The notes: generated by a model from the letters alone, not told the origin. Numbered from the stretch's first letter, positions 16,501 through 64,000 are shown. The stretch: DNA of 64,000 nt from Methanobacteriota archaeon (GCA_020697715.1 JAEHCO010000001.1:714149-778148), one strand, 5' to 3'. Translations and numbers: made by a program.

Positions 16501-16819
16501 TGTTGCTGGATATGGTAGTGTAGATAGATTCGTCAAAGGTTCCACCATTATCCTCGCTGATGAGCACATCTATGACCTGAAGTTGCTCATATGTCTCCTC
16601 AACGATGAAATATTCTATCGAGTCTCCAACGACCATCGATGCACATATGATAGAGGTCCCTATCAACAGGCCAGCCACCGATATCACGGTATGGCCCTTG
16701 TGCCTCAGGAAGTTCCTGACCCCGAGTTTCGCGATCACCCGTCTATGAATTCCCATGGCCAGCATCAGTACGATGAGGCCAAGGACGATAGCGGGCAAAT
16801 ATAATTCAGAGGTTTCCAT
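13508..16819 (-). CDS. ABC transporter permease, duplicated MacB/FtsX type
   Basis: Two FtsX motifs (EERKSELGMARAVG, VERTPEIGILRSIG), two large extracellular domains, ends P.EALRY. Confidence 0.9.
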   Translation of the reverse strand: METSELYLPAIVLGLIVLMLAMGIHRRVIAKLGVRNFLRHKGHTVISVAGLLIGTSIICASMVVGDSIEYFIVEETYEQLQVIDVLISEDNGGTFDESIYTTISSNNELSALTDGISPLLVQSVSVRQQQSGLFEPSVSLIGFDAVQDEEFGLFTLSNGEEINGAVTGNNSVINRELANSLDADVGDTIDLTYTIGNGYMGYGDIHSQTLTISYIVEDEGKAQFNPGSGMNLETYNIYVDIDTAQDMLDAQNMISMIKISNIGGVESGTDGTEEVLEAIEPLIQDLTFNVQNEMLIPIPMGGANISMLSNSNLDAGSLVLTTNGTVMEQTPFMVENGGAMYIILGDFVMAPNGSFLPVAPLLSDVNSTIYNNFEFDESSGMVTFVSPPPMTPVFAEYSYTFILEAEGVKQDSLEMAQDINELLSTFLTIFGSFAILAGVILIINIFTMLAEERKSELGMARAVGMKRRHLMQSFLFEGLAYGSVASAMGTIVGVVIGWILIYMINNIANIMAGVVIPFHFENFSLIQAFSTGFIITFATILFTSWRISNLNIIRAIRGIEEPVNDRKGWKIPLLGALLVVVSSVMMFQMWNDEFMVKLLAPSGIITGLAMLLWRWIGDRISVTSATLGVFLYTYYAIRTYFGDADMGNLEMPFILSGVLIVLSLVLLIMYNSKPVIMMIVNSIGRAKKFRPTVMTAVSYPLSKKFRTGMSVAMFALVVYMIVMLSVFSNIFVMDLDEETLKEGGGYHIIANAQNPVIDIYNVTDPVDNTMITSSVFDHATISQVSQAYAAEANVTEEVQADEGGMGFGFGMFSGAIVYGIDDQFHEGRSFEFMKVMEEFEGQEVSAVWEAVTAPDSNYIIYSSMMAMMSQVSVGNHLTFTTFTGDVTEEYQVIGIVDQSTLNGAFMSKPNVIKEFGMMGMANSVFLIDVGDGQDIQATADAMEKDFAALGMNSVIVEDMVESSMEMMNSMFVLFELYLYMGMVVGVAGLGIITIRSVVERTPEIGILRSIGFKKKNVRNAFLIEILFVATMGVLIGTLAGIMVSYEIFNVMISDMGGDIEYVIPWAKIALVTAIAYIATILCTIIPAMNASKTSPSEALRYVG

Positions 16820-47362: not shown

Positions 47363-50113
47363 TCAGTCAGATCTCCTGAGCTTTCTCCAAACCACGGAGC
47401 CAATTAGCACGAGCAGAGGCAGGATATACAGTATGGTCAGATCGCTACCATCATCTGCCTTTTCCTCTGCCACTTGATCCAATGTGCCAGTCATATTCTG
47501 ATCCTCCGATGTTAGGGTCACTTCTTCCAATATTTCAGTCTCTATCTGATCAGTATCTGGATGGTCGATATCAAATATTGTAGCTTCTATTCTTATCATC
47601 AGATAGGTGTGATCGACATTTCCATAGATATCGGATATGGACAGTGTGACATTGTGATCACCTGGTTCGTCAAACACCCAGGTGGTGTTCATATCGAATG
47701 AATCCGCAATTCCATCAAAATCCATATCCCATGAGTAGTTGGATAGCTCATATCCGCAAGTGGAGCTGGAAGCCGAGAAATTGATGGTCATGTTCGTCAT
47801 CAGAACACCAGTGGCTGTTATGACTGGCCTTGGCTTTTCCATCTCGTCCTTCCAATCGTATCCAAATACCTGGGTGAAATAATCGGCTATTTCTCCATTT
47901 TCCACGATGATGCCCACTTCCCTGTTCCGTGTGCATGAGTTCTCGTTCCAATTTATGCTGGATATCAAGGTTTTCGAACCATCGACCACCATGCCTTTGG
48001 TGTGGACCTTGGTGAATATGTGTGTGCCGGACCTGACAAGCCTTGCCTCGATGTCCAGTTCCTCTGTTTCAGCCAATGAATTTAGGTATGCGACAGTGTC
48101 GTCATTGTCATTGTAATCCTCGAATTTGATATTATAATCTGAAGAATCCAAAAGCACCTTGACGGAACAGCCTCGCCTGGCAGCGTCTATGAGGGCTGCC
48201 AGGTAGGGATTGAGCTGTGGCCAGGAACCATCCGCATTTCGCTTTCCCCAATGCAGGTCGATGTAGAATTGCTCGACCAGTATAGTGTCCTCTGCGGAGT
48301 TGATAAGATTCATCAAGGGGTCTTCCGGGGTGAGGGACATATCTGGATAGATCACGGCGGTCACATTCGATGTGGATGTGCTGGTCTGCTGCTCGAAGAT
48401 GGGCTCCAGTGTCTTGTCCATCATTGGGTTGAAGATATCAGATACCGTATTTGGTTCGAACTCATGCACATCTTCCCAGTCCACTTTCCAATCATTGTAG
48501 AAGACATGTGAAAAATATTCTGCCAATCCCTCATCGTCTATGGCGACCCCCCAACCACGATTGCCTGTGGTTCCCGGAACTGGCACGCCACTTTTCTTCC
48601 AATTCTCGGTCATGACGATTGTTGTTGAATTATCTGCCACCATGTATTTCGCATGATTGAAATTGTACCTGGTCTCGATCTTGGGATTGGAAGGGTTCTG
48701 TGTATGCACCTGGGCTCCGGCCAGTGACAACCATGATAGTAGCTCTTCTTCCGCATCCGGCATGCCGCCGACAGGTGAACCATCCACCAGGATCATCACA
48801 TCCACACCTCTTGAAAGTGCGGTGTGAAGTGATGTGGCCAGATTGTAGTCCGTGAACTCATAGAGATTGAGCGAAATTCCGATCTCGGCATTTTCAATAA
48901 TATCAATGATAGCATCCATTGAACAATCTGGAGACACAAAAGCAGTGGTCTGGCCGGATGTTTGGAAGTATCCGGATGATACGCTGGATTGACCAGCCTT
49001 GATGGTCTTGGACATATCCCAATCCAATGAGGAATCCGTGTCCAGATAAGTTCCATTGATCATCATTCTCTTGACTATCTCATATGAACCATCCACCTTC
49101 ACTGCCGCCCCTGTCCAGCCTTCCCCGCTGTGGGTGGAATCTCCGAAGACAAAAGCATCTGCAACATCGAGGCCAGTGTTCACAAGGAATATCTCATCCC
49201 CATCATTCGCCATCGTGGGGCTTGACTTGGGCACACTGAGGCCATCCATGATCGATCGCCCTGTATAGGCGAATTCCGGATACTGGAGGGTCATCTCATA
49301 ATACCGGGTTCCATTGTCCGCTATTGCCATTACTTCGCCTGGCAGGATGACAGTTCCTTTATCAAAAACAGCCAAACCCTCGCCATCGGTGATCCCACAC
49401 ATGCTCAGATCGATGGATCCATTGGTCGGATTCATTATCTGGATGAACTCACCGCCAAGTTTTGCATCCGGGCAGACGGCGGTGATCAGAACACCGCTGA
49501 TATTCCTGGATAAGGAGCCAGGTGTTGGGAGTGACTGGCTCCATCTGTCTCCCTCTTTCACATATGAATAGCCTTCGGAAATGAATGATAGATTGGATCT
49601 CTGACCAAGCTCCATTGGCGGAAGGTCCACCGAGCTACCATCACCATAACTTATGAAATCCACAGGATGGTCAGTATTGTTCCTAAGTAGTATATCGTCA
49701 CCAGTACCAGTAAGCAAGGAGGATGTCTTGTTCATGAACAGATACCATGCTCCCTCGGTCGCATTATAGCTCGGTATGCCGCAGTTGACATGAACAACTG
49801 CGAATTCGCCAGGGGCCAGAGTGATATTCGGAAATACCATATCCACGCCTCCATCCTGATCACTAAGGGTCCAATTCAGGATATTGTGATGTTCCGTTCC
49901 CATGTTCTGCAATTCGATGAATTCCCCTTCCAGTTCCAATCCAAGAGGATCATAGAGGAACTCGCTGATGAATATCTCATTAGATGGGATGGTGGTGATG
50001 GTGTCCATCGTCTGTAATGGAACTACATCTGATGCGGCCGTGTTCATTGCCGTTCCGCAAAGGTTGATCATTGTCAGGGCGATTATCAGGGTTGCTATCA
50101 GTGTCTTTTTCAT
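47363..50113 (-). CDS. Surface-anchored phospholipase D-superfamily protein with lamin-tail and PKD domains
   Basis: Signal peptide, two LTD-like domains (FISEFLYDP..EFIEL.N), HKD motifs HAKYMVAD and HTKGMVVD, PKD domain (YSWD..D..PG...VTL) and a C-terminal TM helix. Confidence 0.88.
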   Translation of the reverse strand: MKKTLIATLIIALTMINLCGTAMNTAASDVVPLQTMDTITTIPSNEIFISEFLYDPLGLELEGEFIELQNMGTEHHNILNWTLSDQDGGVDMVFPNITLAPGEFAVVHVNCGIPSYNATEGAWYLFMNKTSSLLTGTGDDILLRNNTDHPVDFISYGDGSSVDLPPMELGQRSNLSFISEGYSYVKEGDRWSQSLPTPGSLSRNISGVLITAVCPDAKLGGEFIQIMNPTNGSIDLSMCGITDGEGLAVFDKGTVILPGEVMAIADNGTRYYEMTLQYPEFAYTGRSIMDGLSVPKSSPTMANDGDEIFLVNTGLDVADAFVFGDSTHSGEGWTGAAVKVDGSYEIVKRMMINGTYLDTDSSLDWDMSKTIKAGQSSVSSGYFQTSGQTTAFVSPDCSMDAIIDIIENAEIGISLNLYEFTDYNLATSLHTALSRGVDVMILVDGSPVGGMPDAEEELLSWLSLAGAQVHTQNPSNPKIETRYNFNHAKYMVADNSTTIVMTENWKKSGVPVPGTTGNRGWGVAIDDEGLAEYFSHVFYNDWKVDWEDVHEFEPNTVSDIFNPMMDKTLEPIFEQQTSTSTSNVTAVIYPDMSLTPEDPLMNLINSAEDTILVEQFYIDLHWGKRNADGSWPQLNPYLAALIDAARRGCSVKVLLDSSDYNIKFEDYNDNDDTVAYLNSLAETEELDIEARLVRSGTHIFTKVHTKGMVVDGSKTLISSINWNENSCTRNREVGIIVENGEIADYFTQVFGYDWKDEMEKPRPVITATGVLMTNMTINFSASSSTCGYELSNYSWDMDFDGIADSFDMNTTWVFDEPGDHNVTLSISDIYGNVDHTYLMIRIEATIFDIDHPDTDQIETEILEEVTLTSEDQNMTGTLDQVAEEKADDGSDLTILYILPLLVLIGSVVWRKLRRSD

Positions 50114-50416
50114 CTTATCACTGAAGCCCAACTGCCCCTATGCGCATATAAACGAAGTCGATTCTTGTAGGCTATATGTAGGGTATTGTTTTCCATAAAT
50201 ATTTCAAATCCAGATATGATCTTTGTAACAGATGAGCAAAAAGCATTGGCTAGTATCTTTATTTGCTGGCCACTCAGCGACCATTTTATTTAAATTACAA
50301 GTAGCAAGGCTACCTGGGCAATTTATAAATATATATTGTTGTAATACATGCGTATATTGATACAACGTCTGTTGTATAACTATAGACTCAGGGTGGGGGT
50401 CTTTGGAGGAATATTA

Positions 50417-52876
50417 ATGGAATTTGATAGGAAAGTGATTAGCATTTTACTAATCACTTCAATGATATTAGCTAGTGTCGCGATAGTTTCTGAGAACGTG
50501 AGTTCCATCGATGTAGGTGGTAAAACTGTCACGGATATTGCCTCCCTTCCAAATGGGGTGACCATCAATGATATCTCATGGATGGATGATGGCTCAATGG
50601 CATTGGCTGTTGGAGCCAATGAATCCGGTGGCTCGAATGCTTTCTGGTATTATCCAAATACCGATCAATGGGTGGCCATCACACCATATTGTGTCGAGGT
50701 GGTCATGGAATTGGTCCATACCCAGACAGCCACAGAAACTGGCCCCTATGCCCTTGCAGACTCGCCTGTTTACAATTACACTTTCTATGTTGATGATGGC
50801 AGTCTTAGTCAGATAGTGGAGGGCGTGGATTACACTTTTGACCCAGTTACGGGACACATAACAATGTTGGCAGGTATAGCTCCTGCTGCAGATATTTTAT
50901 GCTGGTACAATTACTCAGTAAGAGAATTGTTCGCAACTGAATATGATAAGTTCACTGGTAGCTTCGGTATTGTTGGATCATTTATTGATGGTATACAGTC
51001 CAGTGCATTGTACATAACTCCCGGATCCTCGGAAATGATGGAGATATCACATAATGGTGCATGGCCGACCCAGGAACTAAGAGGTATGGATGTGGATGAG
51101 TACGGCAATTTCCTAGCAGTAGGATCAAATGATCTGGTCTTATTCTACAGACTACTGGATGACACTTGGTATGCGGTTGCCGATAATGAAGGTGAGACTG
51201 GCTGGGATTACAATGATGTTAGCTATGAGCTGGAAAATCATAGATACTACCTTGTGGGTGGTAATGCCAGCGGCGGCGTGATCGCATACTGTGACGCTCT
51301 TGCTGATAATACGGCTATACCAGTGAAGCATCACAATTATGATTCTTTTGCCAATATGACCCAGAAGGCGATCATCAATTCCATCGAATGGAACAATGAT
51401 CCGAATAAGTTCGGCGGAAATCAATACGCTTTGTTAGTAGGTGGCTCGGATCTGGTAATGATCCAGCCAATCGATTCAGGATCGCCGATGATCGTTGGCC
51501 CCCAGATCCCGAACATGGTCTTCGAGGATGTTGGATTTGATGAATACTCATGGGCGGATGCGACACTTGTCGGATGGGATCAATCCACTTCCAAAGGTTA
51601 TATTCTTTATTTCACACCCGGGGAATCCAATATAAAGACACTACATTCTGACTTAAGCCAGAAGTTCTATTGTGTGGATTACCGACCACCGAACAGTCCG
51701 TCCTTTGGTTTTGTACTGGGAGCAACTGGAGCAATGAAGATCAATACCAATGCATTTGATATGACCACCAAGCTCTACGTGAACACCGATGTGCCTCATG
51801 TATTCGATATAGACATGTGGGATGCCAGTGATGCTGGTCAGGTCTCGGTGCTCAATACACAGGTCGATGTCAAGAACACATACACCTTTTTCACGGAGGT
51901 GAATTACACTATTGGAGGAGTGGATGAGTTCTGGGACAATAATGACAATGTCAGAGTCATTCTTTGGGCATGGCATGATGAGGGGCAGACAGATACCGAT
52001 TCAAATCCAGAAGGGACCTGGGCCACAGAAGATAATAGGACCCGGCAGTTCAGTGTCGCATGGGATGAGGGGACCACTCTTGTTCCAGGACAGGGATCAG
52101 CCAGTATGTTATATCCTGTTGGAAGCGCAGGAGAGGACGAGTTCAGGCTGGACAGCTACTGGGTCGATCCAACGGGATATGGTTTAGACAGTAGCACCTG
52201 GCGATTGTATTTCAATATAACTTTCGATAATCAAACATGGGCCGCGGATGGAAATGGCTTTGGAAATGGAGCATCATCCAATATTAATGACCCTGGCCAA
52301 TCATTGAACGATATAAATAGCTGGGATATGAGATTCCAGATATATGACCAGAATTTCGTAACAGCACTGAATGAGAGTTATGAGGAGTTCGGAATATTCA
52401 AGTTCACGAACATCAGTGTCAGTGGAAACCCAATGGGCAATGCACCTCCAGGAACCAATGATTCCGCTCTATCACCATTCTCCCAGATCACCTATGCCGC
52501 GAATCTGGATTATTATCTCAATGTATCCATAACCAATCTTTCCAAAGTAGGTGGCGGAGCAGAGATCGGAGCCAATAATATCCGTGTTGAGATGAATGAT
52601 CCGCAGGCCAATAGCACCAATACCCAGTTGAACGACACGTTCAGCTATTTCCCGGATGCGGACATTCCTCTTGGAATTTGGGGGAATGTATCACAACCTG
52701 TTTCTAATTGGGTCTTACCAGCGCCACTGAATGGAACAACAGCCAATGGTCCATTTGGTTCGGATTACAATGCTTACGGTGGAGCCACTGATCTGGAGTG
52801 GTATGCGACCGTTCCGGGGGCCACACTCGAAGGGATCTATGAGGCTGTTATAACGATCACGATAGGGTACTATTGA
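50417..52876 (+). CDS. Secreted scaffold-family surface protein 1
   Basis: Signal peptide, beta-propeller blades, a ~75-aa insert and the shared C-terminal region. SD GGAGG before the ATG at 50417. Confidence 0.85.
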   Translation: MEFDRKVISILLITSMILASVAIVSENVSSIDVGGKTVTDIASLPNGVTINDISWMDDGSMALAVGANESGGSNAFWYYPNTDQWVAITPYCVEVVMELVHTQTATETGPYALADSPVYNYTFYVDDGSLSQIVEGVDYTFDPVTGHITMLAGIAPAADILCWYNYSVRELFATEYDKFTGSFGIVGSFIDGIQSSALYITPGSSEMMEISHNGAWPTQELRGMDVDEYGNFLAVGSNDLVLFYRLLDDTWYAVADNEGETGWDYNDVSYELENHRYYLVGGNASGGVIAYCDALADNTAIPVKHHNYDSFANMTQKAIINSIEWNNDPNKFGGNQYALLVGGSDLVMIQPIDSGSPMIVGPQIPNMVFEDVGFDEYSWADATLVGWDQSTSKGYILYFTPGESNIKTLHSDLSQKFYCVDYRPPNSPSFGFVLGATGAMKINTNAFDMTTKLYVNTDVPHVFDIDMWDASDAGQVSVLNTQVDVKNTYTFFTEVNYTIGGVDEFWDNNDNVRVILWAWHDEGQTDTDSNPEGTWATEDNRTRQFSVAWDEGTTLVPGQGSASMLYPVGSAGEDEFRLDSYWVDPTGYGLDSSTWRLYFNITFDNQTWAADGNGFGNGASSNINDPGQSLNDINSWDMRFQIYDQNFVTALNESYEEFGIFKFTNISVSGNPMGNAPPGTNDSALSPFSQITYAANLDYYLNVSITNLSKVGGGAEIGANNIRVEMNDPQANSTNTQLNDTFSYFPDADIPLGIWGNVSQPVSNWVLPAPLNGTTANGPFGSDYNAYGGATDLEWYATVPGATLEGIYEAVITITIGYY

Positions 52877-52908
52877 TGGTCTGATAATAAGGCTGATCTC
52901 CAAAAAGG

Positions 52909-52935
52909 CACAATCGGATAATCTATCCGATTGTG
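52909..52935. promoter_or_regulatory. Perfect 12-bp inverted repeat (terminator or operator)
   Basis: CACAATCGGATA-ATC-TATCCGATTGTG, about 50 nt upstream of the TTTATATA box at ~52983. Confidence 0.5.
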
Positions 52936-53098
52936 TTATCCTACTTTTCCCCATAATATATAATAGTTACCCAAATAGTATATTTATATAAAGTAACATA
53001 CAAGCTTTATTCTCTAAGGGGGGTTCCGAAAGGGCTCTGCATGATCCGCATCTCTCAATTATGGGAGGGCGAATTCAATAATAGAGGGGACGAGGCCT

Positions 53099-56000
53099 AT
53101 GTTCAGAAAACGAGTTATAGCTTTGAGCATTGTGATGTTGATGATAGCCAGTGTATTCACAGGAATATCATTTCTAATCACAGCTGAAGATGTTGGAACG
53201 GATCCTATCGAGGATATATCAAGTGCTCCAGCAGGTGTCCAATTGAATGATATCGCATGGCATCCTGATGAGAATATTGCCGTTGCCGTTGGTAATGATT
53301 CGACCAATGGATACATTTACAGATATGAGCCAGATGCTGATAATTGGGCCAATCTCAGAAATTATGTGGGAGATACTTTCAAGGGCGTGACCAGAACCGA
53401 GCCTTGGACCTTCTTTGATGATGCAGAGTCTGATGCTGGATGGACAATAAATTCATGGAGGGGTAACTTGGACTGGGAAAGAAAGAATCCAACAGTCTTG
53501 CCAGTGCCAGGCTCTGGTATCTCTCATGACACTGCATATTCTGGTAATTCAGTATGGTGGTTTGGAAACACCACCACTGGGGATTACAATGATAATAATC
53601 AGATAGTCAGAGGTAGCATGATATCCCCTGTAAAACACATACCAAATATCTCGACCAATGCATACCTATCGTTCCAGCACTGGTTCGATGTTGAGTCCGG
53701 TGGAAGTTATGACTACAGTCATGTCTATATCAAGAACACTACCGACCCAGGATGGACAAATCTGTACACCTGGAACTCTGGATGGGTAAGCTCCAATGGA
53801 GGCGCTGGCACTCACTCGAAGATTTCCTGGACACAAGAGAGATATGATATATCTGACTGGATAGGAAATGATGTCCTTCTTAACTTCACATTTGATTCTG
53901 GGGGAGACGGATCAGCTAATAATTATGCTGGATGGCATATCGATGATATCCAGCTGGAATCCAATGGTATTTTCATGGCTGTGGGTAATCCTGGCGGGGG
54001 TTCTTTCTCCGCTTTCTATACGGATGGTTACAGTCCGATGACCAGTGTGGAAGACCTGGCTGGCTTTGATCTTTATGATGTAGCTGCCGGACCTATTGGG
54101 ACCGCTGTGGCTGTCGGAGCAGGCGGAGCTGCCCTTTACTGGGATGGTGAAGTTTGGCAAGGTCTAAGTGGCCCGGCTGGCACGGACACCCTGGCATCTG
54201 TGGATTGTAATGGCTCGCATTACTTCATTGTAGGCTATGACTCGGGTGACAATGGGATCGGCTTCTTCATAACGGCCAATGAGCTGGCCACAGGGAATTA
54301 TGACATGCACTCAATGCCTGGAGCCCCCACTTACAAGCTCAATAGTGTAAGTTGGTCCAATGATTGTCCGGCTGGCAGTTCGGATAATGGATTGGGAATA
54401 ATCGCCGGAGAAGGAAACATCCTCGGTCTGACCAATCCCGAGTTCTGGCGGCAGAAGGATCCATCAACGGTTCCCACTGGCAGAAGGAATCAGGCCATGT
54501 CCTGGGATGAAGATTACAATCAAATGATAATGTTCGGTGGAAGTAGTGGAGTTAACCTTGGCGATACCTGGGCATATGATATTGGCAATGATGAATGGAA
54601 TAACCTGAACCCAGGAGGCGCCCCATCTGCAAGAGAATACCCCAGGATGGTATACAGTCCAACTGACAATGTTCATATAATGTTCGGGGGCAATGATGGT
54701 GGTGGCTATGATGATGAGACCTGGGTGTACAATTATGCCACAAACTCCTGGACGAACAAGAATCCCAACCCCAGACCCCCTACAAGATCCGAGCACACTA
54801 TGGCCTATGACGAGGTCTATCAAAAGGTCATTCTCTTCGGTGGAAAGAATAATGGTGGAAACCTGGCAGATACATGGGCGTACGATTACCGCACCAACAC
54901 ATGGACCAATATGACCCCCACAATATCAGGAATTCCAAGTGCGAGGTTCCTGAGTGGAATGAGCTATGACGCAATGAACGAAAAGACCATAATGTTCAGT
55001 GGCTGGGGATCTTCAGGAGCCATCAGCGACACTTGGGCCTACGATTATCCCAGCAATACATGGACCGATATGAGTCCAGTACCATCCCCAACAGCGAGAG
55101 ACAGGCATGCCATGACCTTCGATAAGGCTATTGGCCGAAGTGTTGTCCATGCTGGTTGGACCGGAGCTAATGTAGACGATACATGGACATACGATTATGG
55201 GACCAATACCTGGGAGGAAATGACCACACCCACTCGTCCATCTTATAGGTTTGATATGGTAATGGCCTATGCCACACAAGGTGTGATCGTCATGTTCGGA
55301 GGGAACTATCCTGTATCCAATGATGAAACATGGCTATGCAGGCTGAATGTGAACCCATGGGGGGAACCTTCCAGTGTCACGAATGGTGAGAGCTTCACTG
55401 ACACTGCATGGGATACAGCTGGAACAACAGCTATCGTCGTTGGTCATAATACCATATCCGCGGTCCTTTATTCATATCAATCTGGGGATGAGGATGTGAC
55501 TAAATTACAGGATTTGAACAATGTACTGGCTGGCCACGAGCTTTATGGCGTCAGCTGGAGACCTCTGGACCATGGTGCGGAATATGCCATGGCCGTTGGA
55601 GCCAGTGCCTTCAAGCTATGGAGCAATGTCTTTGATGATGGTACCGAAATAACAGTGTCCACTGACAAGCCACACATTTTCCAGCATGGCCTATGGAAGA
55701 CCGCGGATGGTCTATATTCTGCTTCAAAATTGGATAGCCAGCTGGATGTCCGGACAACATACACTTTCTTCGCCGAGGTCAATTACACCATCGGCGACGT
55801 GGATGACCTTATGGATGCGGATGGGAATTCGCGGATCGAGGTAATGGCCTGGTATGATGAAGGGAACACAGGAACATCCAATCCTGAACCGTCATGGGCC
55901 TCTGTTGATAACAGGACCAGGCAATTCAGGCTCATGTGGTTCGAGCAGAATGGACCTGTACCTGCCACAGCCAGTATGCTTTATCCCATTGCCAGTCCAG

Positions 56001-56758
56001 GGATCGACGAGTTCCAATTGGACGGATGGTGGATGGATCCCATCGCCTATGGTGCTGATGGCAATACAAGGAGATTCTTCTTCAATGTCACACTCGGGCC
56101 ACAGACATGGGCAGCGGATGGTAATGGCTTCAGCAATGGCATAGGTGTGCCATCTCACGATAAGGGCGTGGCTCTCAATGATCCAGACAGCTGGGATTTC
56201 AGGGTTCGACTATACGACAATAACTTCGTCAATTCGGCAAATCTCTCATTTGGTGAGTTCGGGATCTTCAGATACACGAACATCACAGTAGCTGGCAACC
56301 CTGGCGGGAATGCACCGCCAGGAACTATGAACTCCGGACTGGGACCGCAGAGCCAGATCACATATTCATCCAATATTCCACATTATGTCAATGTCTCAGT
56401 GGGGGATCTGAACAGACAGGGTGGTGGCGGTAGTATTGCTGCTACGAACATCAATGTCAGTCTCCAGAATGATCTGGGAATTGGATTGAACCCATACACT
56501 GAGATCAATGATGATACTTGGCCCAATGGAAGGGCCTTTACAGGTGCTGGACTAGCCAATGATCGGTGTGTCTGGGGTAATAGAACCCAGCTCATAAAAT
56601 CCATGCCAGCGCCAAAGAACGGGACTACCTCCCATGGACCTTGGGGTTCTGATTTCAATAGCATGGGAGTGACGTACATCAACTGGTGGGCCAATGTGCC
56701 CGGAGCTACGCCTGAAGGTATCTACCAGGCGAGCGTGACATTTACAATAGAATATTAG
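53099..56758 (+). CDS. Secreted scaffold-family surface protein 2 (InhA/MAM-like jelly roll plus Kelch propeller inserts)
   Basis: FFDDAES...LSFQHWFDVE..YD...GWHIDDI domain, six Kelch repeats (P..R....M.YD....MFGG...DTW.YD) and the shared C-terminus. Confidence 0.88.
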   Translation: MFRKRVIALSIVMLMIASVFTGISFLITAEDVGTDPIEDISSAPAGVQLNDIAWHPDENIAVAVGNDSTNGYIYRYEPDADNWANLRNYVGDTFKGVTRTEPWTFFDDAESDAGWTINSWRGNLDWERKNPTVLPVPGSGISHDTAYSGNSVWWFGNTTTGDYNDNNQIVRGSMISPVKHIPNISTNAYLSFQHWFDVESGGSYDYSHVYIKNTTDPGWTNLYTWNSGWVSSNGGAGTHSKISWTQERYDISDWIGNDVLLNFTFDSGGDGSANNYAGWHIDDIQLESNGIFMAVGNPGGGSFSAFYTDGYSPMTSVEDLAGFDLYDVAAGPIGTAVAVGAGGAALYWDGEVWQGLSGPAGTDTLASVDCNGSHYFIVGYDSGDNGIGFFITANELATGNYDMHSMPGAPTYKLNSVSWSNDCPAGSSDNGLGIIAGEGNILGLTNPEFWRQKDPSTVPTGRRNQAMSWDEDYNQMIMFGGSSGVNLGDTWAYDIGNDEWNNLNPGGAPSAREYPRMVYSPTDNVHIMFGGNDGGGYDDETWVYNYATNSWTNKNPNPRPPTRSEHTMAYDEVYQKVILFGGKNNGGNLADTWAYDYRTNTWTNMTPTISGIPSARFLSGMSYDAMNEKTIMFSGWGSSGAISDTWAYDYPSNTWTDMSPVPSPTARDRHAMTFDKAIGRSVVHAGWTGANVDDTWTYDYGTNTWEEMTTPTRPSYRFDMVMAYATQGVIVMFGGNYPVSNDETWLCRLNVNPWGEPSSVTNGESFTDTAWDTAGTTAIVVGHNTISAVLYSYQSGDEDVTKLQDLNNVLAGHELYGVSWRPLDHGAEYAMAVGASAFKLWSNVFDDGTEITVSTDKPHIFQHGLWKTADGLYSASKLDSQLDVRTTYTFFAEVNYTIGDVDDLMDADGNSRIEVMAWYDEGNTGTSNPEPSWASVDNRTRQFRLMWFEQNGPVPATASMLYPIASPGIDEFQLDGWWMDPIAYGADGNTRRFFFNVTLGPQTWAADGNGFSNGIGVPSHDKGVALNDPDSWDFRVRLYDNNFVNSANLSFGEFGIFRYTNITVAGNPGGNAPPGTMNSGLGPQSQITYSSNIPHYVNVSVGDLNRQGGGGSIAATNINVSLQNDLGIGLNPYTEINDDTWPNGRAFTGAGLANDRCVWGNRTQLIKSMPAPKNGTTSHGPWGSDFNSMGVTYINWWANVPGATPEGIYQASVTFTIEY

Positions 56759-56769
56759 GAGGCTGTAAT

Positions 56770-56841
56770 ATGAAAACCAACACAGAAAAACTGAGCAAGA
56801 ACTTGACGGCCTTCGAACAGAGAAGGGGTGATTCTCAATGA
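56770..56841 (+). CDS. 23-aa bridging micro-ORF MKTNTEKLSKNLTAFEQRRGDSQ
   Basis: SD AGGAGG overlaps the upstream stop; its TGA overlaps the next ATG (ATGA at 56838-56841). Confidence 0.45.
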   Translation: MKTNTEKLSKNLTAFEQRRGDSQ

Positions 56842-59800
56842 ATCAAAAAATGACCTCAATAGTGATAGTGTGTGCGATGCTGTTGATGGGAATAACCATC
56901 AACATAGACAGTGGCGCCCAAGGGGCCTTCGTGAACTACCAGTCCGTACCATGGGACAGTAACTTCACACCATTGGATTCCGCATGGGATCCAGCCGGAG
57001 ACAATTGTATCGTTGTAGGCAATGATACGTCAGGACTACAGTCAAGTGCCTGGCATTATTATGAGCCTACGGACACTTGGTCTCAGATATCTGAGGCCGG
57101 TGGTTATATGTCAACACCTGGCAATTATGCTGAGAATCAGAACTCTGGAATTTCTTATCCAACTATCCAGGGTGCTATCGACGCGGCCAATGAGGGTGAT
57201 ACCATCGAGGTATGGGCAGGTTCATATACTGAGAATATTGCCGTTGGCATTCCCCTTACCTTGGAGGGAAATGGAAGTTACAACACCGTTATTGACGGCG
57301 CTGGTGCAGGTAATGTCGTCACAATATCAGTAGATGGTGTTGAGTTCAGTGGTTTCACGGTCACTAATTCCGGAGCAGGGAATTCTGGGATATTGCTGTT
57401 CAATTCGGACAATAGCCAGATACATAACAATACTGCTGAGGGAAATGGTTATGGGATACGCCTTGAGGGTTCATCCAACAATATCATTAGGGATAATGAT
57501 GTGGAGAACAATGATGTTGGAATGATAACCACTGACAGTCCAGAGATAAAGAAGATGGTCGGCATAACAGGTTATGGGGGTATGGGCTATGGTACTATGT
57601 TCGACATGGACCCATCTGGAGATAATTATGAAGTTGTACGTTCTTTCACCCCTGCATATGAAGATGGATACAGTCCGCAATTTGGGAAATTGACACAGGA
57701 TATCTTTGATCCCAGTATCCTGTTCGGTATGACGGCAAATGGTGGAACATATAATGAGGGGGTCATTTACAAGGTTCGCACCGATGGATCTGATTATGAG
57801 ATCCTACATGAGTTCAATGGGGGCACGACAGATGGAGGACGTCCATATGATGCCACCCTCCTTCAGATAGGCTCCACTCTTTATGGAATGACCTATGATG
57901 GAGGGATTTCTGATGCTGGAGTAATATTCTCGATCGAAAGAGATGGTACTGGTTTTGACATATTGCATGAATTCTCTACAGGGGCTGGTGGAAATAGTCC
58001 CCGAGGCAGTTTGACATATGATGGCATCAGGCTATACGGAATGACGTATTATGGAGGGGCTGTCTTCAATTATGGTGTTATCTTCTCGATGAACTTGGAT
58101 GGAAGTGCATATACCGTCCTGCGCAGTTTTTCAGCTCCAGATGGAGAATATCCATACGGTAGTTTGATACTGGATATGACTACCGGAACCTCCTTGTTCG
58201 GCATGGCCAGAGTAGGGGGTAGTGGCTATGGGACTATCTTCAGGATCAGTACAGATGGCAGTAGCTTCAATGTCCTGCACACTTTCACAGCACTATCAAC
58301 AGACGGACGCTATCCATATGGTTCTCTGATCCAGGATGGGCTGACCCTTTATGGAATGACGTACCAGGGTGGCAATGCTCTTGGTAATGATGGGTGTGTT
58401 TTTAAGATCCAAACAGATGGTAGTGGATTCACCCTCTTGCACAGCTTTTCAACCTCGGGAGGAGGCTACTATCCATATGGTGATCTGGTGCAAAGCGGCG
58501 GCATGCTTTACGGTATGACGCGCTACGCCACAGGAGGGACTGGAATGATATTTGGAGTAAGCACTGATGGATTAACATACAACACACTGCATACCTTCAC
58601 GAATTCACCAGATGGAGCTTACCCATATGGTGGTCTAATACTGGATGGGGCAACCCTTTACGGAGCAACAGGCAATGGAGGCCTGAACTACGGAGCACTG
58701 TTCAAGATAAACACGGACAGCAGTGGCTATTCTATAATTCATAATTTCGATGGTGTCGAGCATGAAGGAACAAAGCCATCTGGTCGCATGGTGCAAGATG
58801 GGAACACCTTGTATGGAGTTACTGAAGATGGTGGAGCTTATGGTTATGGAACCTTCTACAAGATAAACACGGACTACACGGGTTATACCATCCTGCATAA
58901 TTTCGATTATAATACAGAGGGTTATCCATATGCCAGTAGTGTCATTCAGGTAGGCTCGACATTCTACGGAATGCTTTATGAAGGGAACACGGATGATCAA
59001 GGAAGCCTTTACAAGATAAATGCAGATGGCACTGGATTCACTATCCTTCGTGATTTCGAGGATTGGGATGGAAGCTACCCATCCGGTTATTTAGCCTACA
59101 GCGACCCATACCTTTACGGCATGACAGAGAGCGGAGGCATGTGGGGCGAAGGGGTCTTGTACAGATTACGAACAGATGGGACGGATTTCTCTGTAATGGC
59201 TGAATTCGAATATGGTTCAGGATCACCGGCCTATCCATATTTCAATGGATTGGTCGATGGTGGATCGGTCATGTATGGATTTTCTCAAAATGGAGGGATC
59301 TTCAGCAGGGGATGTATATTCAGCATTGATAAGACAACATGGTTCATGGATGTTCTTTACAGCTTCACTGGCGATGTTGATGGAAGCTATCCTCATGGAG
59401 TTCCGATATTGGATGGCGGATACTTGTACGGGACAGCATCCAGTGATGGAGATGTTGTTGCGAATGATGGTACAATATTCAGAATAAACACCGATGGTAC
59501 CAATTTCGTGGTCCTTCATACTTTCCTTCCTGTTGATGGATCGAACCCATACCAAGGGCTGGCACTAGATGGCAATGAGCTCTATGGGATGACCGGTAAT
59601 GGAGGAGCATTCAATGATGGTACAATATTCAAAATGGATAAGGATACAACTACATTCACGGTCCTTCATGAGTTTTCGAGCAATCCAGATGGAAGAAATC
59701 CTAATTATAATGATATCACTGTGGTCGTAATTCCAGCAGCTCAATCCATGGGCAACCTCATCTACCACAATAATTTCATTGATAATACCCAGCAGGCACA

Positions 59801-61898
59801 GGATGATCTCATTCCACCACCGGCCAACTCATGGCATAATGGATTCGCAGATGGTGGGAACTACTGGAGTGATTATGGAGGAATTGACCTGACAGCAGAT
59901 GGAATTGGTGATACAAGCTATCCGATACCTGGCATTGCTTCAGCTTCTGATATCTGGCCCTGGATGAGGGCGGATGGCTGGAAACTGCCATACACGTCCT
60001 TCACCTCAGTTGCGTGGGACGATGTCAATGAGAGATTCTGGCTCTGTGGTGAAGTTTCCACTGATGCTCAGAGCTGTATCTATTATATTCAGAACGGCAC
60101 CTTTGATTCGATGGTGGCTATAGAACCACCACCATTCACCGTGACGGCCTTAGCACCTGACAATTTGGGTAATATCTTGTTAGCAGGGAACAATCTTGAT
60201 TCCATGTTCTATTTCGATCCGATAGCTATTGCCGCATATCCTGTGACCGAGATAGGCACAGGCAAGATGTGGGGCTGGAATATCACAGACATTACTTTCA
60301 ATCCTAATGATAACAGGTTCTATGTGGTCGGCAATCAGATGAATCAGGACAAGGGTGTGGCCTTCCACACGGATACCATTCCACTTGATTCAGGGTCTGA
60401 TAATTGCTATTTGGACACATCCGCATTCATCAGCACACCTCCAGGTAAATTGAAGTCAATTGAATGGAACCCTGCCAGAGACTATGCACTTGTCGTAGGG
60501 GATGGCATTTACAGAATGGATTACTATGATGGCAATCCTGGATATGAACTGACATGGTCCGAGATTGACGCAGGTTCCGCTGGTATCACTTACAGTGATG
60601 TTTCCTGGGATACTGATGGATGGAATGAGGCGGCCATATCGGGTGACGATAATACATTCGGATCCTATTGGAGATATTATCACACCAATCCTCAACTCCA
60701 GCTTGGGTTCACCAATGGAACCGCTAGTACGGGATACAGCACTTGTGCGATGAAGCCACCATCAAGTCCAAAATGGGGCCTTATACTCGGTGGCTCTGGT
60801 GCATTGCAGATCAATATTGAAGAACTGGATCAGAGCTCTACGGTATCGACCAGCTCAATAAATCCGAATTTGTACTGGGTGGGATTCAATGATACTGCTA
60901 TGAATCCTATGAACAACCAGGTCATCAACCCGGATTCATCATTCTACATAACCTTCGAAGGAAATTACAGTGGAGGATGGGACCAATTGGCCATGGAGAT
61001 CGACATGTGGTATGATTTCGGTTTCACCGGTACCAATTCTATATATCCTGTGGAGACTGAATTCAACAGGAACAAGGCCTTTAGTCTGACATATATTCCA
61101 GCCACTTCATCGTGTTCTGTCAATTATCCGAATGGTCCTATCATGGAATTCCAGACAGGTTCGATCACAGATATTGTCTCTATACCACATCCTACCATGC
61201 CAACACATTCCACACATAGGGTGGAGATCGAGATCCTGCTTGGGGCGCAGATGTTCGCGGCCGATGGCAGTGGTTCAATGGGTATTGGTCCCGATTATCA
61301 TTCGGATCCGAATATAGCACTTGACAGGGCCAATACCTGGGACTTCAATGTCACCATGATGGATGTGGGCGACCCAACCAAATTCAACTGCACATATGGG
61401 GAATTTGGTGTGAACAAGGCTATCTCCATATCCATAACTGGAAATCCAGGTGCCGAAGGTACACCAGGTACGAACGGCGTATACCTTGGCTCCAATACCA
61501 TCGAGTATTCGACCAATACCGATTACTGGGTCAATGTCTCGATACCTAATCTTTACTTATATGGCAATGAGGCCAGTCCTTACTTCATATCTGCGGATAA
61601 ACTGCAGGTGGAGAATACCAATGGACTATCTTACTTGCCATTGGTATCTGACATTGATGCTGCGACATATTTCTCGGGTCCTGACCTGAAATGGTGTGTG
61701 TGGGGCAGTTCTGCTGGAGGAGCATTACAAGCTCCCGGTAATGGAACGACAGCTCATGGACCTTGGGGTTCGAACTATAACAATTATGGCAGCGGAGATG
61801 GGTCCACGACTGTGGAATGGTACGTGGATCTTCCAGGGGCACTGGTCGCTGGCACTTATGAAGCGACCATATCATATTCGATAGAGACGGAGGGATGA
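56838..61898 (+). CDS. Secreted scaffold-family surface protein 3 (NosD-like beta-helix containing 14 Gloeo_Verruco-type repeats)
   Basis: TIQGAID....GDTI.V..G.Y.E, 14 x LYGMT..GG...G.IF....DG.....LH.F, IYHNNF...GGNYWSDY...DGIGD and the shared C-terminus. Confidence 0.88.
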   Translation: MNQKMTSIVIVCAMLLMGITINIDSGAQGAFVNYQSVPWDSNFTPLDSAWDPAGDNCIVVGNDTSGLQSSAWHYYEPTDTWSQISEAGGYMSTPGNYAENQNSGISYPTIQGAIDAANEGDTIEVWAGSYTENIAVGIPLTLEGNGSYNTVIDGAGAGNVVTISVDGVEFSGFTVTNSGAGNSGILLFNSDNSQIHNNTAEGNGYGIRLEGSSNNIIRDNDVENNDVGMITTDSPEIKKMVGITGYGGMGYGTMFDMDPSGDNYEVVRSFTPAYEDGYSPQFGKLTQDIFDPSILFGMTANGGTYNEGVIYKVRTDGSDYEILHEFNGGTTDGGRPYDATLLQIGSTLYGMTYDGGISDAGVIFSIERDGTGFDILHEFSTGAGGNSPRGSLTYDGIRLYGMTYYGGAVFNYGVIFSMNLDGSAYTVLRSFSAPDGEYPYGSLILDMTTGTSLFGMARVGGSGYGTIFRISTDGSSFNVLHTFTALSTDGRYPYGSLIQDGLTLYGMTYQGGNALGNDGCVFKIQTDGSGFTLLHSFSTSGGGYYPYGDLVQSGGMLYGMTRYATGGTGMIFGVSTDGLTYNTLHTFTNSPDGAYPYGGLILDGATLYGATGNGGLNYGALFKINTDSSGYSIIHNFDGVEHEGTKPSGRMVQDGNTLYGVTEDGGAYGYGTFYKINTDYTGYTILHNFDYNTEGYPYASSVIQVGSTFYGMLYEGNTDDQGSLYKINADGTGFTILRDFEDWDGSYPSGYLAYSDPYLYGMTESGGMWGEGVLYRLRTDGTDFSVMAEFEYGSGSPAYPYFNGLVDGGSVMYGFSQNGGIFSRGCIFSIDKTTWFMDVLYSFTGDVDGSYPHGVPILDGGYLYGTASSDGDVVANDGTIFRINTDGTNFVVLHTFLPVDGSNPYQGLALDGNELYGMTGNGGAFNDGTIFKMDKDTTTFTVLHEFSSNPDGRNPNYNDITVVVIPAAQSMGNLIYHNNFIDNTQQAQDDLIPPPANSWHNGFADGGNYWSDYGGIDLTADGIGDTSYPIPGIASASDIWPWMRADGWKLPYTSFTSVAWDDVNERFWLCGEVSTDAQSCIYYIQNGTFDSMVAIEPPPFTVTALAPDNLGNILLAGNNLDSMFYFDPIAIAAYPVTEIGTGKMWGWNITDITFNPNDNRFYVVGNQMNQDKGVAFHTDTIPLDSGSDNCYLDTSAFISTPPGKLKSIEWNPARDYALVVGDGIYRMDYYDGNPGYELTWSEIDAGSAGITYSDVSWDTDGWNEAAISGDDNTFGSYWRYYHTNPQLQLGFTNGTASTGYSTCAMKPPSSPKWGLILGGSGALQINIEELDQSSTVSTSSINPNLYWVGFNDTAMNPMNNQVINPDSSFYITFEGNYSGGWDQLAMEIDMWYDFGFTGTNSIYPVETEFNRNKAFSLTYIPATSSCSVNYPNGPIMEFQTGSITDIVSIPHPTMPTHSTHRVEIEILLGAQMFAADGSGSMGIGPDYHSDPNIALDRANTWDFNVTMMDVGDPTKFNCTYGEFGVNKAISISITGNPGAEGTPGTNGVYLGSNTIEYSTNTDYWVNVSIPNLYLYGNEASPYFISADKLQVENTNGLSYLPLVSDIDAATYFSGPDLKWCVWGSSAGGALQAPGNGTTAHGPWGSNYNNYGSGDGSTTVEWYVDLPGALVAGTYEATISYSIETEG

Positions 61899-64000
61899 AA
61901 ATGAGAACTAAATTAACCTCAATTTTGATCGTGAGCGCGATGTTGTTGATGGCCTTTAGCATCAACATAGACATGAATGCTCATGGGGCATTCATAAACA
62001 CTCTGTCCGGAAATGGACTGAACCCGAATTTCATCCCACTAGATACGGAATGGAACACAGAGGGGACCATGGCAGTGGTGGTTGGCCAGGATGTTACAAA
62101 TGGACCAAATGCATACATGTATTGGCCGCATAATGACACCTATTTCCCCATATCGAACTATGTGCCTGGCCAGATACTGATGGGAGTGGATTGTTACAGC
62201 GAACCTGTGTACAATAACACACAATCAGCCCCAGCCTCGACCGTACTTCTGGTTGACGCGGACTGCGCTAATGATGGATTGGTAACACTGTATGATGATC
62301 CTCTGGTGAACCAGGGCTACAGTGTGACCATATGGGATGTATATGGAACCAATGGCCCGGCCGAGGGAAAACCCCAGGATACGGATATGTCCAGCTATGA
62401 CCTGGTTGTGTGGATACCCAGCAGGGACACACAGGGGCCGCCGGTCTATAGTGGTGGAGAGACCTTTGACAGTACTGATCAGAATGAGGTCGGAAATTAT
62501 CTAGATGGTGGAGGAAATTTCTTCCTTTCCAATATCTATTGGTCCTCCTATCTACCTTTCGCAATGCCTTACAGTCTTGGTGAATTCACATACGATTACC
62601 TGGGACTTAGCGGTATATCCAACACTGGCTCCAATAGGGAGAACGCTGTAATGGGAAATACCGGAGATTCTCAGTTCGATGGGTTCGGAACAGCGTACCT
62701 GGATTGGAACCTGGGAAACTGGGGTGGAACGAATCCATTCCAGTCCGATGAGCCAACTGTCGGAAATGGGGAGATCTGTGCTTATATTGGATGGGATATG
62801 CCACCTCTCGATTGGGGAAATGGCGGGGTCAAGTATGATGCAGGAACCTTCAAGTCCATGTTCATGGGATTCCCTGTTGAAACACTACAACCAGCAGATG
62901 CAGATGATTTCTGGGCAAGAGTGGGAGATTTCTTTGAATTATCTGGTGGTGGTGATCTCACGAACTTCGCAATGTTAAATCCCTCACAGGATAACACCAT
63001 TTATGAAGAAGATACAAGCTACAGCAATGGTGCCGGGCAATACATCTTTACTGGAATGAATTCAGGCTCTGATATTAGAAGAGCTCTTGTTCAATTTGAC
63101 CTGGAGGGATCTCTGCCTGAAGGCTCGACCTTAACTGGTGCAGCCCTTTATCTATACTGTAGCTGGTCCGAGATGCCAGGAAACGAAGCGGTCAGCCTTC
63201 ATGCCCTACAGGAAGATTGGGGCGAAGGGATCTCAGATGCTAATCCAAATGAGGAATATGGAACCAGTGCGGCCATTGGAGATGCAACATGGAACCATAG
63301 ATATTATTCCTCAACCTTTTGGGCAAGTCCGGGTGGAGAATATGATCCGTCATCCAGTGCTATAACTACCGTGGGAGTTGCTGGTTCTTATTATGTCTGG
63401 ACATCTGCACAAATGAAAACAGATGTGCAAAATTGGATAGATAATCCAGAACAGAATAATGGATGGATGGTCAGAGGAAATGAGGGTATGATGGAAACTG
63501 CAAAAGGTTTCAGCAGTGTGAACAATAGCGATTCATCTACCATTCCGATCCTAGTTTTGGAATACACAAATCCCTTCACTCAAGAAGTGGTAATCGAATC
63601 AGATAGGGATAATGGTATGTTCTCCGAGGATCCAGACCAGAGCAATGGTGCCGGGGAGGCCATGCGTGCTGGTGCCAACAGTGTGGATGATGTAAGAAGA
63701 GGTCTGATCCACTTTGATGTAGCTGGCAATGTACCAGCAGATTCAATCATAAGCTATTCTGACCTGCAGATGACATGCAGGCGAGATGCGGATGGCTCTT
63801 CAAGGACCTACACTCTGCAGAGAATGACCAATGACTGGGGCGAAGGAATATCGGACGATGGAGGCTTTACAGCTTCCGGCAATGCTGAAGCTGAAGATGC
63901 CACATGGGACTACAATTTCTACTCCTATTCCAATTGGGGCACACCTGGTGGGGATTTCGATCCCACAATAGTATCTTCTCAGATCGTCACTAGCAGTGGA
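61895..64000 (+). CDS. Secreted scaffold-family surface protein 4 (partial; alpha/beta domain plus two DNRLRE-like domains)
   Basis: Not in the ORF track. Manual translation gives a signal peptide like protein 3, F.PLD..W...G..AVVVG, VLLVDAD...YDLVVW...YLDGGG, and twice DN...SNGAG...RR.L..FD...WGEG. ATG 61895 overlaps the previous stop (alternative 61901). Confidence 0.85.
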   Translation, partial: MKMRTKLTSILIVSAMLLMAFSINIDMNAHGAFINTLSGNGLNPNFIPLDTEWNTEGTMAVVVGQDVTNGPNAYMYWPHNDTYFPISNYVPGQILMGVDCYSEPVYNNTQSAPASTVLLVDADCANDGLVTLYDDPLVNQGYSVTIWDVYGTNGPAEGKPQDTDMSSYDLVVWIPSRDTQGPPVYSGGETFDSTDQNEVGNYLDGGGNFFLSNIYWSSYLPFAMPYSLGEFTYDYLGLSGISNTGSNRENAVMGNTGDSQFDGFGTAYLDWNLGNWGGTNPFQSDEPTVGNGEICAYIGWDMPPLDWGNGGVKYDAGTFKSMFMGFPVETLQPADADDFWARVGDFFELSGGGDLTNFAMLNPSQDNTIYEEDTSYSNGAGQYIFTGMNSGSDIRRALVQFDLEGSLPEGSTLTGAALYLYCSWSEMPGNEAVSLHALQEDWGEGISDANPNEEYGTSAAIGDATWNHRYYSSTFWASPGGEYDPSSSAITTVGVAGSYYVWTSAQMKTDVQNWIDNPEQNNGWMVRGNEGMMETAKGFSSVNNSDSSTIPILVLEYTNPFTQEVVIESDRDNGMFSEDPDQSNGAGEAMRAGANSVDDVRRGLIHFDVAGNVPADSIISYSDLQMTCRRDADGSSRTYTLQRMTNDWGEGISDDGGFTASGNAEAEDATWDYNFYSYSNWGTPGGDFDPTIVSSQIVTSSG

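Follow-up and report, generated by a model that had tools for sequence, protein, structure and literature searches.

A modular archaeal protein family, encoded in tandem and diversified by domain insertion at several loops

Four tandem genes and their shared chassis

The window studied here is a stretch of 64,000 nucleotides (nt) from a genome recorded as Methanobacteriota archaeon (GCA_020697715.1, JAEHCO010000001.1:714149-778148), and it holds an array of related genes from an uncultured Thermoplasmata archaeon. The array occupies positions 50417-64000 and consists of four tandem open reading frames (ORFs) on the + strand, the last of which is still open at the 3' end of the window; all features described within the array lie on this strand. 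The genes encode a common scaffold, referred to here as the chassis, and carry different inserted domains, referred to as cargo. Gene 1 (protein P0001; 50417..52876) belongs to an ORF that opens at 50348, but M24 (50417) is most likely the true start, as in homologues, giving a protein of 819 amino acids (aa) in which a 71-aa insert interrupts the chassis at a position termed sub-site A1. Gene 2 (P0002; 53099..56758) encodes 1219 aa, with inserts at a second position, sub-site A2, and at site B. Gene 3 (P0003; 56838..61898) encodes 1686 aa, including a 966-aa insert at A1, and gene 4 (P0004; 61895..64000) shows 702 aa before it ends with the window, its ortholog being 1391 aa long. The intergenic gaps are 222, 79 and -4 nt in order. 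The start codon of gene 4 and the stop codon of gene 3 thus overlap by 4 nt (61895-61898), which suggests that these two genes may be translationally coupled.

Pairwise blastp comparisons showed that the N-terminal ~85-120 aa are common to all four proteins (E 1.6e-12 to 3e-4), with 45% identity between P0003 and P0004 in this part. The three complete genes also share blades 2-7 of a predicted beta-propeller and a 373-aa C-terminal module: P0001 388-841 aligns with P0002 757-1219 at 45% identity over 473 aa (E 6e-113), P0001 147-839 with P0003 1003-1682 at 29% over 725 aa (E 1.5e-56), and P0002 754-1218 with P0003 1240-1683 at E 1e-37. A previous sequence-only reading of the window had proposed that the four proteins begin with the same propeller blade and that the complete ones share a C-terminal region of ~370 aa. 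Both proposals agree with these alignments, in which the motifs that it had listed (D..W, VG, Y.P..D.W, AADG.G, SWD, EFG, GNP....PGT and AP.NGTT..GP.GS..N) are visible.

A profile search over 1.84 billion representative proteins returned 273 chassis relatives at E<=1e-3, 208 at E<=1e-10 and 137 at E<=1e-30, the counts being clusters at 50% identity and a lower bound. A chassis hidden Markov model (HMM) of 722 positions, made from 14 insert-free relatives of ~720-745 aa, was mapped on 153 proteins (150 of the listed relatives plus P0005, P0007 and P0008). An automated architecture parse found 24 insert-free full chassis proteins of 709-747 aa among them, and the HMM pieces are collinear on either side of the insert in every insert-bearing member. 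The existence of these bare forms is the strongest argument that the segments flanking an insert form one fold. We conclude that the chassis is one continuous unit.

An AlphaFold2 model of gene 1, run with 91 aligned relatives, has a mean predicted local distance difference test (pLDDT) score of 88.3 and contains seven groups of four strands (residues 38-445), followed by two beta-sandwiches. The blades correspond to residues 48-87, 171-~212, 221-253, 264-307, 322-~363, 367-412 and 417-442, the last together with an N-terminal strand at 38-40; the order of strands suggests that this N-terminal strand completes the last blade and closes a seven-bladed propeller. A discontinuous propeller with inserts, as put forward in the sequence-only reading, is supported by the 24 bare forms, the collinearity of the HMM pieces and these seven sets of four strands. 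Along gene 1, a hydrophobic helix (~residues 5-24; 50417..50506), which would be a Sec signal peptide or a signal anchor, is followed by the closing strand, taken to complete blade 7, and blade 1 (50528..50707; pLDDT 87-94, chassis HMM 4-94). The insert (residues 98-168; 50708..50920) is a small beta module of no known family, with ~five short strands predicted at low confidence (pLDDT 53-72). Blades 2-7 then span residues 169-446 (50921..51754), where the 24 strands, arranged in fours, mostly have pLDDT >90.

The C-terminal module of gene 1 (51755..52873), two packed beta-sandwiches, is the family-defining part. Folded alone, its 373 aa reached a pLDDT of 95.2 and a predicted template modelling score (pTM) of 0.90, and it can therefore be regarded as a rigid unit; a homodimer prediction scored 0.02, which speaks neither for nor against self-association. 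The module also occurs alone behind a signal peptide, in proteins of ~390-490 aa (among P0100, P0108, P0113, P0117 and L020 885-2117), or duplicated, or N-terminal in giant multidomain proteins of up to 2451 aa, where its companions are NosD, PQQ-propeller, PKD, DUF11 and Big_5 domains. Relatives with such variant contexts include P0094, P0116, P0031, P0085 and P0014. Because it is found alone, duplicated and in giant proteins, the module is an independent evolutionary unit.

Database searches placed the chassis in no described family. Gene 1 matched no Pfam family at E 0.01 and no NCBIfam family, and neither collection covers the chassis in genes 2 and 3. A PDB sequence search with a single protein gave 0 matches at E<=1; with the chassis profile, the PDB matches were Kelch and WD40 proteins at E>=0.03, which were set aside as blade-level noise. 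A word-indexed homologue search, with protein or profile, returned the query itself and three close relatives, all named 'hypothetical protein', and Foldseek searches found no close fold neighbour of the chassis. No paper on the chassis family was found in the literature, searched at abstract level. Judged by these searches the chassis is previously undescribed, as had been suspected from the sequence.

Insertion sites and inserted domains

The sequence-only reading had all four inserts starting within ~20 residues of blade 1, which the junction alignment confirmed, and had placed them at a single fixed permissive loop, which it did not. At sub-site A1 (genes 1 and 3; also P0016) the insert follows blade 1 and precedes strand A of blade 2 ('LFATEYD', 'FTSVAWD'; HMM 87|92). 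At sub-site A2 (genes 2 and 4; also P0015, P0022 and P0037) strand A ('TFKGVT', 'ILMGVDC') comes before the insert and strand B after it (HMM ~101|103). In the residue-level junction alignment the two sub-sites are separated by 10-14 residues and represent two loops at opposite ends of one strand, and the insertion points are therefore near but not equivalent. The general topology of propellers puts the loops at the two ends of a strand on different faces of the disc, and A1 and A2 should accordingly lie on opposite faces.

At least three further sites are used in the family. Site B, after strand C of blade 5 (HMM ~252-282), receives a Kelch propeller of ~300 aa (gene 2 residues 448-756, P0010, P0050 and P0062), and Kelch alone is carried by P0012, P0102, P0105, P0138 and P0142. 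Site C, where a module of ~150-170 aa of no known family is accepted, follows the signal peptide and precedes blade 1, and site D lies in the last sandwich (HMM ~680-690; inserts of 110-140 aa). The automated parse recovered both an N-terminal piece and the C-terminal end in 51 of the 153 proteins. Twenty-eight of these 51 have no insert (the 24 full chassis proteins of 709-747 aa and four consisting of signal peptide and C-terminal module only), nine have an insert at A1 and seven at A2, the latter including P0006, a gene 1 ortholog with fuzzy borders. The remainder are divided among an ambiguous A1 or A2 position (one), A2 plus B (one), site C (two), site B only (one) and other sites (two). 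Insert sizes range from 70 to 1400 aa. Hence, the family is modular and has been diversified by domain insertion, at several loops.

The cargo of gene 2 occupies two of these sites. The first insert (residues 99-287; 53393..53959), after strand A of blade 2, is an InhA-like MAM jelly roll (PF20773, 35.9 bits against a cut-off of 26.9), although the match is partial and covers profile positions 62-174 of 191. A chassis piece (residues 288-447, equivalent to HMM 102-267; 53960..54439) then runs from strands B-D of blade 2 to strand C of blade 5. The second insert (residues 448-756; 54440..55366) is a six-bladed Kelch propeller nested at the junction of blades 5 and 6, with six DTW..W repeats at 450-735; PF24681 matched with 195.3 bits (cut-off 50), and Kelch_3, Kelch_4 and Kelch_1 were above cut-off as well. 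Blades 6-7 and the C-terminal module, the part that is 45% identical to gene 1, complete the protein (residues 757-1219; 55367..56755).

In gene 3 the insert (residues 87-1052; 57096..59993) is a parallel beta-helix split by GloVer repeats. The generic models PF05048 (47.9 bits against 23.6) and Beta_helix (33.1 against 25.9) are above cut-off, and the NosD subfamily model TIGR04247 gave 111.1 bits against a cut-off of 300; since only the generic models pass, the cargo is regarded as a parallel beta-helix and not as NosD proper. Fourteen GloVer repeats (TIGR03803, 421.9 bits against 44) make up ~700 of the 966 inserted residues (~residues 245-955; 57570..59702, borders approximate) and interrupt the helix, with NosD profile positions 57-159 before them and 156-212 after. 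Gene 3 thus has three-level nesting, with GloVer repeats inside a beta-helix inside the propeller. Blades 2-7 and the C-terminal module follow at residues 1053-1686 (59994..61895), as delimited by blastp and the chassis HMM.

Gene 4 (within 61895..64000) has blade 1 and strand A of blade 2 at residues 1-103, and its A2 insert follows. The insert begins with an alpha/beta domain (~104-352) and continues with two DNRLRE domains (366-555 and ~565 onwards; NF033679, 77.7 bits against 34), the duplication also being seen by blastp. The alpha/beta domain, ~245 aa long, has no Pfam match. A language-model search gave a lead to DUF4960/GATase1-like accessory domains, with 152 shared features and a score of 0.94 that is below the level at which such leads are usually right. 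The sequence-only reading had recognized the MAM domain, the six Kelch repeats, the beta-helix and the two DNRLRE domains but had missed the 14 GloVer repeats of gene 3.

To place these inserts among those of the family, 57 long relatives (33 + 24) were scanned with Pfam at E 1e-5. Laminin_G_3 lectin-like domains, often three, and Kelch were each found in 12 of the 57, NosD/beta-helix in 11, GLUG in six and FG-GAP in two. No recurring catalytic family was detected in this set. The DNRLRE domain, as found in gene 4, is ~30% identical to the alginate-binding carbohydrate-binding module CBM96 and occurs in lyases (PMC9971899); it also occurs, and was first defined, in archaeal surface proteins (PMC2447325).

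Relatives, chassis and cargo histories, and genomic surroundings

Genomic loci of the family were collected in one scan of GTDB representative genomes with a single pattern, G[NS]PxGNAPPG, taken from a 12-row alignment, so that family loci and taxonomic range are undercounted. The scan gave 141 matches, of which 29 were confirmed, at 20 loci. All 20 are in metagenome-assembled genomes, whose record titles read Thermoplasmata archaeon (10), Methanomassiliicoccales archaeon (five) and Methanobacteriota archaeon (five). The family appears to be confined to uncultured Thermoplasmata-type archaea.

In the closest relative found, JAEHCQ010000001.1 (85% identity to gene 1), the genes upstream of the array match those of the window, namely RLI, a rubrerythrin-like gene and a gene for a protein with LTD, PLD and PKD domains that is described below. 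It carries 12 tandem members of 832, 1238, 1692, ~1403, 1783, 736, 903, 1545, 908, 900, 948 and 904 aa, and its array is followed by LonB, a cytidylyltransferase and CinA. The fourth member is P0015 (1391 aa), in which the chassis resumes at residue 775; as gene 4 is 82% identical to it over 700 aa, gene 4 runs on beyond the window. The sequence-only reading had looked to the region past 64 kb for both further members and assembly genes, and in this relative the former are present and the latter are not. No secretion, sortase, glycosylation or assembly genes were seen beside the array or the single-copy members, only housekeeping genes. Gene order is partly the same in a 55%-identity relative (L002, L004), and array order is kept across genomes at 55-85% identity (L001/L010/L006, L002 and L004). 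Past the end of the window, the variant met most often in the array is the one with the site C module (L006 5822-16771; L010 11108-13816): the module is present in five of the 12 array members of the close relative, and relatives that have it include P0024, P0030, P0041, P0042, P0047 and P0073-75.

Outside arrays, insert-free single-copy members are found at one conserved position in seven loci (L013, L014, L016, L017, L018, L019 and L020). On one side lies a divergent operon for acyl-CoA dehydrogenase, ETF alpha-beta and an M20 peptidase, and downstream, in most loci, Usp and ribose-5-phosphate isomerase (RpiA).

A tree was computed from 422 chassis columns downstream of site B for 74 proteins of known architecture; coverage of at least 90% had been reached by 106 rows, of which 32 with uncertain architecture were left out. 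In this tree the bare forms are scattered among those with inserts, and it requires at least nine changes in the presence or absence of a site A insert and at least 13 changes among A1, A2 and none. The four window genes are old paralogues, and the chassis of genes 3 and 4 group as sisters (100% support) despite the different sub-sites and cargo of the two genes. The beta-helix and GloVer cargo of P0003, P0013, P0016 and P0021 is 41-45% identical over ~960 aa, whereas the chassis of P0003 shares just 34-38% identity with those of the other three. With the chassis of P0015, which carries other cargo and is orthologous to the adjacent gene 4, it shares 59%. Similarly, the alpha/beta cargo of P0015, P0022, P0037 and P0039 is 38-54% identical, and their chassis are 35-39% identical per pair, except for the sister pair P0015/P0022 (72%). 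The chassis tree pairs a beta-helix-type with an alpha/beta-type protein three times. Approximately unbiased (AU) tests rejected chassis clades of same-cargo proteins, with differences in log-likelihood of 373 (p 3.6e-4) and 360 (p 1.4e-48); as the groups were defined with the tree already in view, the p-values are weakened, though not the effect size.

The incongruence of the two histories indicates that chassis and cargo have recombined, and it lends support to the earlier proposal that the cargo is interchangeable. On this sequence evidence, either the chassis would have been homogenised between neighbouring genes or the cargo would have moved between chassis; either is recombination.

The surroundings of the array in the window are archaeal and ordinary (RLI/ABCE1 ATPase, DNA ligase, M3 peptidase and FtsX-type permease), and an HMM search over six-frame ORFs found no further chassis paralogues elsewhere in the window. 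Divergent from the array, at 47363-50131 on the - strand, lies the gene for a 922-aa secreted-looking protein with two lamin-tail (LTD), two PLD-like (HKD) and one PKD domain, possibly an extracellular nuclease or phospholipase. The gene is syntenic in the 85%-identity relative (L001 6922-9780), and in L014 and L017 the bare family members likewise have LTD proteins, of ~706-711 aa, at a distance of a few genes. At 40019-41356 (- strand) a 445-aa protein with a signal-like N-terminus has FG-GAP repeats, which are true integrin-type blades; its sequence is unrelated to the array chassis. A 1103-aa MacB/FtsX-type permease with a big extracytoplasmic domain is encoded at 13508-16819 (- strand), and a similar gene, of 1129 aa, is found near the family member in L015.

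Known systems and the role of the array

Foldseek searches with the whole gene 1 model placed integrin alpha chains at the top (E 2.6e-11 to 1e-8), with template modelling (TM) scores of just 0.2-0.3 and 7-10% identity. As in integrin alpha chains with an inserted I domain (alphaM, alphaX, alphaE), a seven-bladed head is predicted here to be followed by immunoglobulin (Ig)-like beta-sandwich legs, and one of the propeller loops close to the N-terminal blades holds an inserted, folded binding domain. However, the integrin I domain sits between blades 2 and 3, whereas insertions in the chassis flank strand A of blade 2 and comprise many cargo types rather than one vWFA domain. Membership of the integrin family was rejected: gene 1 and the chassis parts of genes 2-4 have no FG-GAP match in Pfam, the three complete array proteins, whose last residues are ...TIGYY, ...TIEY and ...IETEG, lack a C-terminal hydrophobic tail or transmembrane helix, and the array contains no gene for a beta-subunit partner. 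Only the architecture of the predicted model is alike, with its head of seven blades, its Ig-like legs and its inserted domain.

The C-terminal module gave generic matches to tandem Ig-like adhesins and pilins (CfaE/CfaB, FimH, antigen I/II and integrin legs) at TM<=0.41, and nothing specific in BFVD, where matches were generic Ig-like with full-length TM<=0.28. Bacterial adhesins that bear their heads on Ig-like stalks (FimH, CfaE/CfaB, antigen I/II C-domains and SdrG) provide the best PDB fold matches for the two packed sandwiches and follow the logic proposed here, a conserved stalk with a variable binding part. They are alike in fold class only (TM<=0.41, root-mean-square deviation 7-14 Å); moreover, no chaperone/usher, sortase or pilus genes are near the array, and the variable domains of the chassis are inserted in the propeller and not added at the end. 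A donor-strand pilin of the chaperone-usher type was likewise rejected, as the module folds complete on its own (pTM 0.90), the fold matches have TM<=0.38 and no such genes are nearby. In the ESM Atlas the 30 clusters nearest to the module are all unnamed and mostly archaeal. The nearest named one, a WxL cell-wall-binding domain, was discarded with a score of 0.76, below the level of a usable lead, and so was the best partial fold match, TLP-1a (9ikj; TM 0.28/0.41), as too weak to use. TLP-1a is described as an environmental fibril of unknown origin.

Nested propellers offer a further parallel, by description only. The nested propellers of DDB1, CPSF160 and SF3b130 are eukaryotic intracellular scaffolds. 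The six-bladed Kelch propeller of gene 2 likewise lies inside another propeller, and gene 3 reaches three levels, but nesting in the chassis is a recurrent diversification of secreted-looking archaeal paralogues. Predicted archaeal surface proteins, such as Methanosarcina surface proteins and adhesin-like proteins of methanogens, contain similar cargo domains (DNRLRE, beta-helix, PKD); they differ in that the domains are arranged end to end, with no propeller and double-sandwich chassis.

With regard to export, the N-termini of the array proteins and of their relatives have a K/R-rich start, a ~20-residue hydrophobic stretch and an AxA-like end. N-x-S/T sequons occur at 2.3 per 100 aa in gene 1 and 1.3 in gene 2, compared with 0.2-0.5 in six cytoplasmic-type proteins of the window, and the array proteins are probably N-glycosylated. 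Together with the types of cargo, the signal-like N-termini and sequon density suggest possible surface display or adhesion, and the cargo types a putative role as adhesins or as receptors of glycans or other polymers. We consider it probable, though far from certain, that this tandem array of exported, probably glycosylated chassis paralogues is a repertoire of extracellular binding proteins. The window genes would then be the first four of a long tandem array, in which folding, export and a shared stalk or attachment function would fall to the conserved chassis, and ligand specificity would differ with the inserted domains. Whole folded domains of binding type would have been spliced into surface loops of the propeller, mostly those flanking strand A of blade 2, and the repertoire would have arisen by gene duplication and by recombination that re-paired chassis and cargo.

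Several observations weigh against a binding repertoire of this kind. The parse left 102 of the 153 proteins as incomplete or other, being fragments, Kelch blades that mimic chassis blades, or the C-terminal module only; ring closure and the faces of the inserts are predicted from strand order and general propeller topology, closure being supported by the bare forms; and the AU groups were picked from the tree itself. The N-termini were read as putative Sec signal peptides by eye only, and the array proteins show no evident membrane anchor, PGF-CTERM-like tail or lipobox. Cargo in 21 of the 57 long relatives belongs to no recognised family, so that 'binding type' is not established for these, and in other proteins beta-helices of the NosD-like type are sometimes catalytic.

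The lack of an anchor, taken with a C-terminal module that is rigid and highly conserved, also speaks for an alternative in which the chassis would be a subunit of an S-layer or envelope lattice and the array members lattice-compatible variants decorating the envelope with extra domains. The high sequon density, the secreted forms with the C-terminal module only (P0100, P0108, P0113 and L020 885-2117) and the insert-free single-copy members at one conserved position in seven loci, as for a core envelope protein, fit this explanation as well, but related genomes may share this position simply through synteny. It is hard to see how one lattice would accommodate twelve paralogues that have diverged to 30-60% identity and bear bulky inserts of up to 1400 aa, and no solved S-layer protein is among the listed Foldseek matches. 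We regard a lattice subunit as rather improbable.

Catalytic inserts are an alternative of about the same low probability: the inserts would be polysaccharide lyases, hydrolases or peptidases, the chassis would bind the substrate or serve as a tether, and the array would be a locus for polymer degradation. Parallel beta-helix, DNRLRE and GATase1-like domains do occur in carbohydrate-active enzymes, DNRLRE in lyases (PMC9971899). For the alpha/beta domain of gene 4, the language-model lead is to accessory domains of glycoside hydrolases; a Peptidase_M26_N region is present in one relative, and the divergent neighbour is the secreted-looking LTD-PLD-PKD protein. Nevertheless, no catalytic family of glycoside hydrolases, lyases or peptidases was found at E 1e-5 in the four window proteins, and the 57 relatives yielded only a partial GH130 match (P0085) and the M26 N-region, which is non-catalytic. 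The commonest cargo (Laminin_G_3, Kelch and MAM) is also non-catalytic, and the NosD subfamily model falls well below its cut-off (111 bits against 300).

A conflict system, with polymorphic toxin-like or variable-receptor cassettes directed against competitors or viruses, could account for tandem diverged paralogues, swapped modules and incongruent chassis and cargo histories, but it is disfavoured and very improbable, given that the variable part is internal and the C-terminus, in polymorphic toxins a variable toxin domain, is the most conserved part, that the four window proteins matched no toxin family, that gaps of 222, 79 and -4 nt leave no space for immunity genes, and that genomes at 55-85% identity have kept the order of the array.

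Returning to the repertoire of binding proteins, the lectin-like and CBM-like cargo and the secreted nuclease- or phospholipase-like neighbour suggest that the array proteins may mediate attachment to, or capture of, polymers in sediments. A more speculative extension, which we hold to be possible but doubtful, is a recombining cassette system, in which a display chassis, possibly a unit of envelope lattice or attachment, would be combined with a pool of binding domains that are re-paired between tandem paralogues at a few tolerated loops. If true, the archaeon would have a set of surface receptors able to evolve, a counterpart to the I-domain solution of integrins that arose among prokaryotes, in archaea. 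The family would also show, as a guide provided by nature, which propeller loops tolerate whole domains, including a propeller within a propeller and three-level nesting.

The chassis proteins make up a sizeable family that has had neither a Pfam or NCBIfam model nor a solved relative. For protein evolution they are a rich natural experiment in domain insertion, in which the same propeller accepts another propeller and an insert that is itself interrupted, and for protein engineering they point to permissive loops of a propeller scaffold. Finally, the array bears on the all but undescribed cell surfaces of uncultured Thermoplasmata-type archaea.

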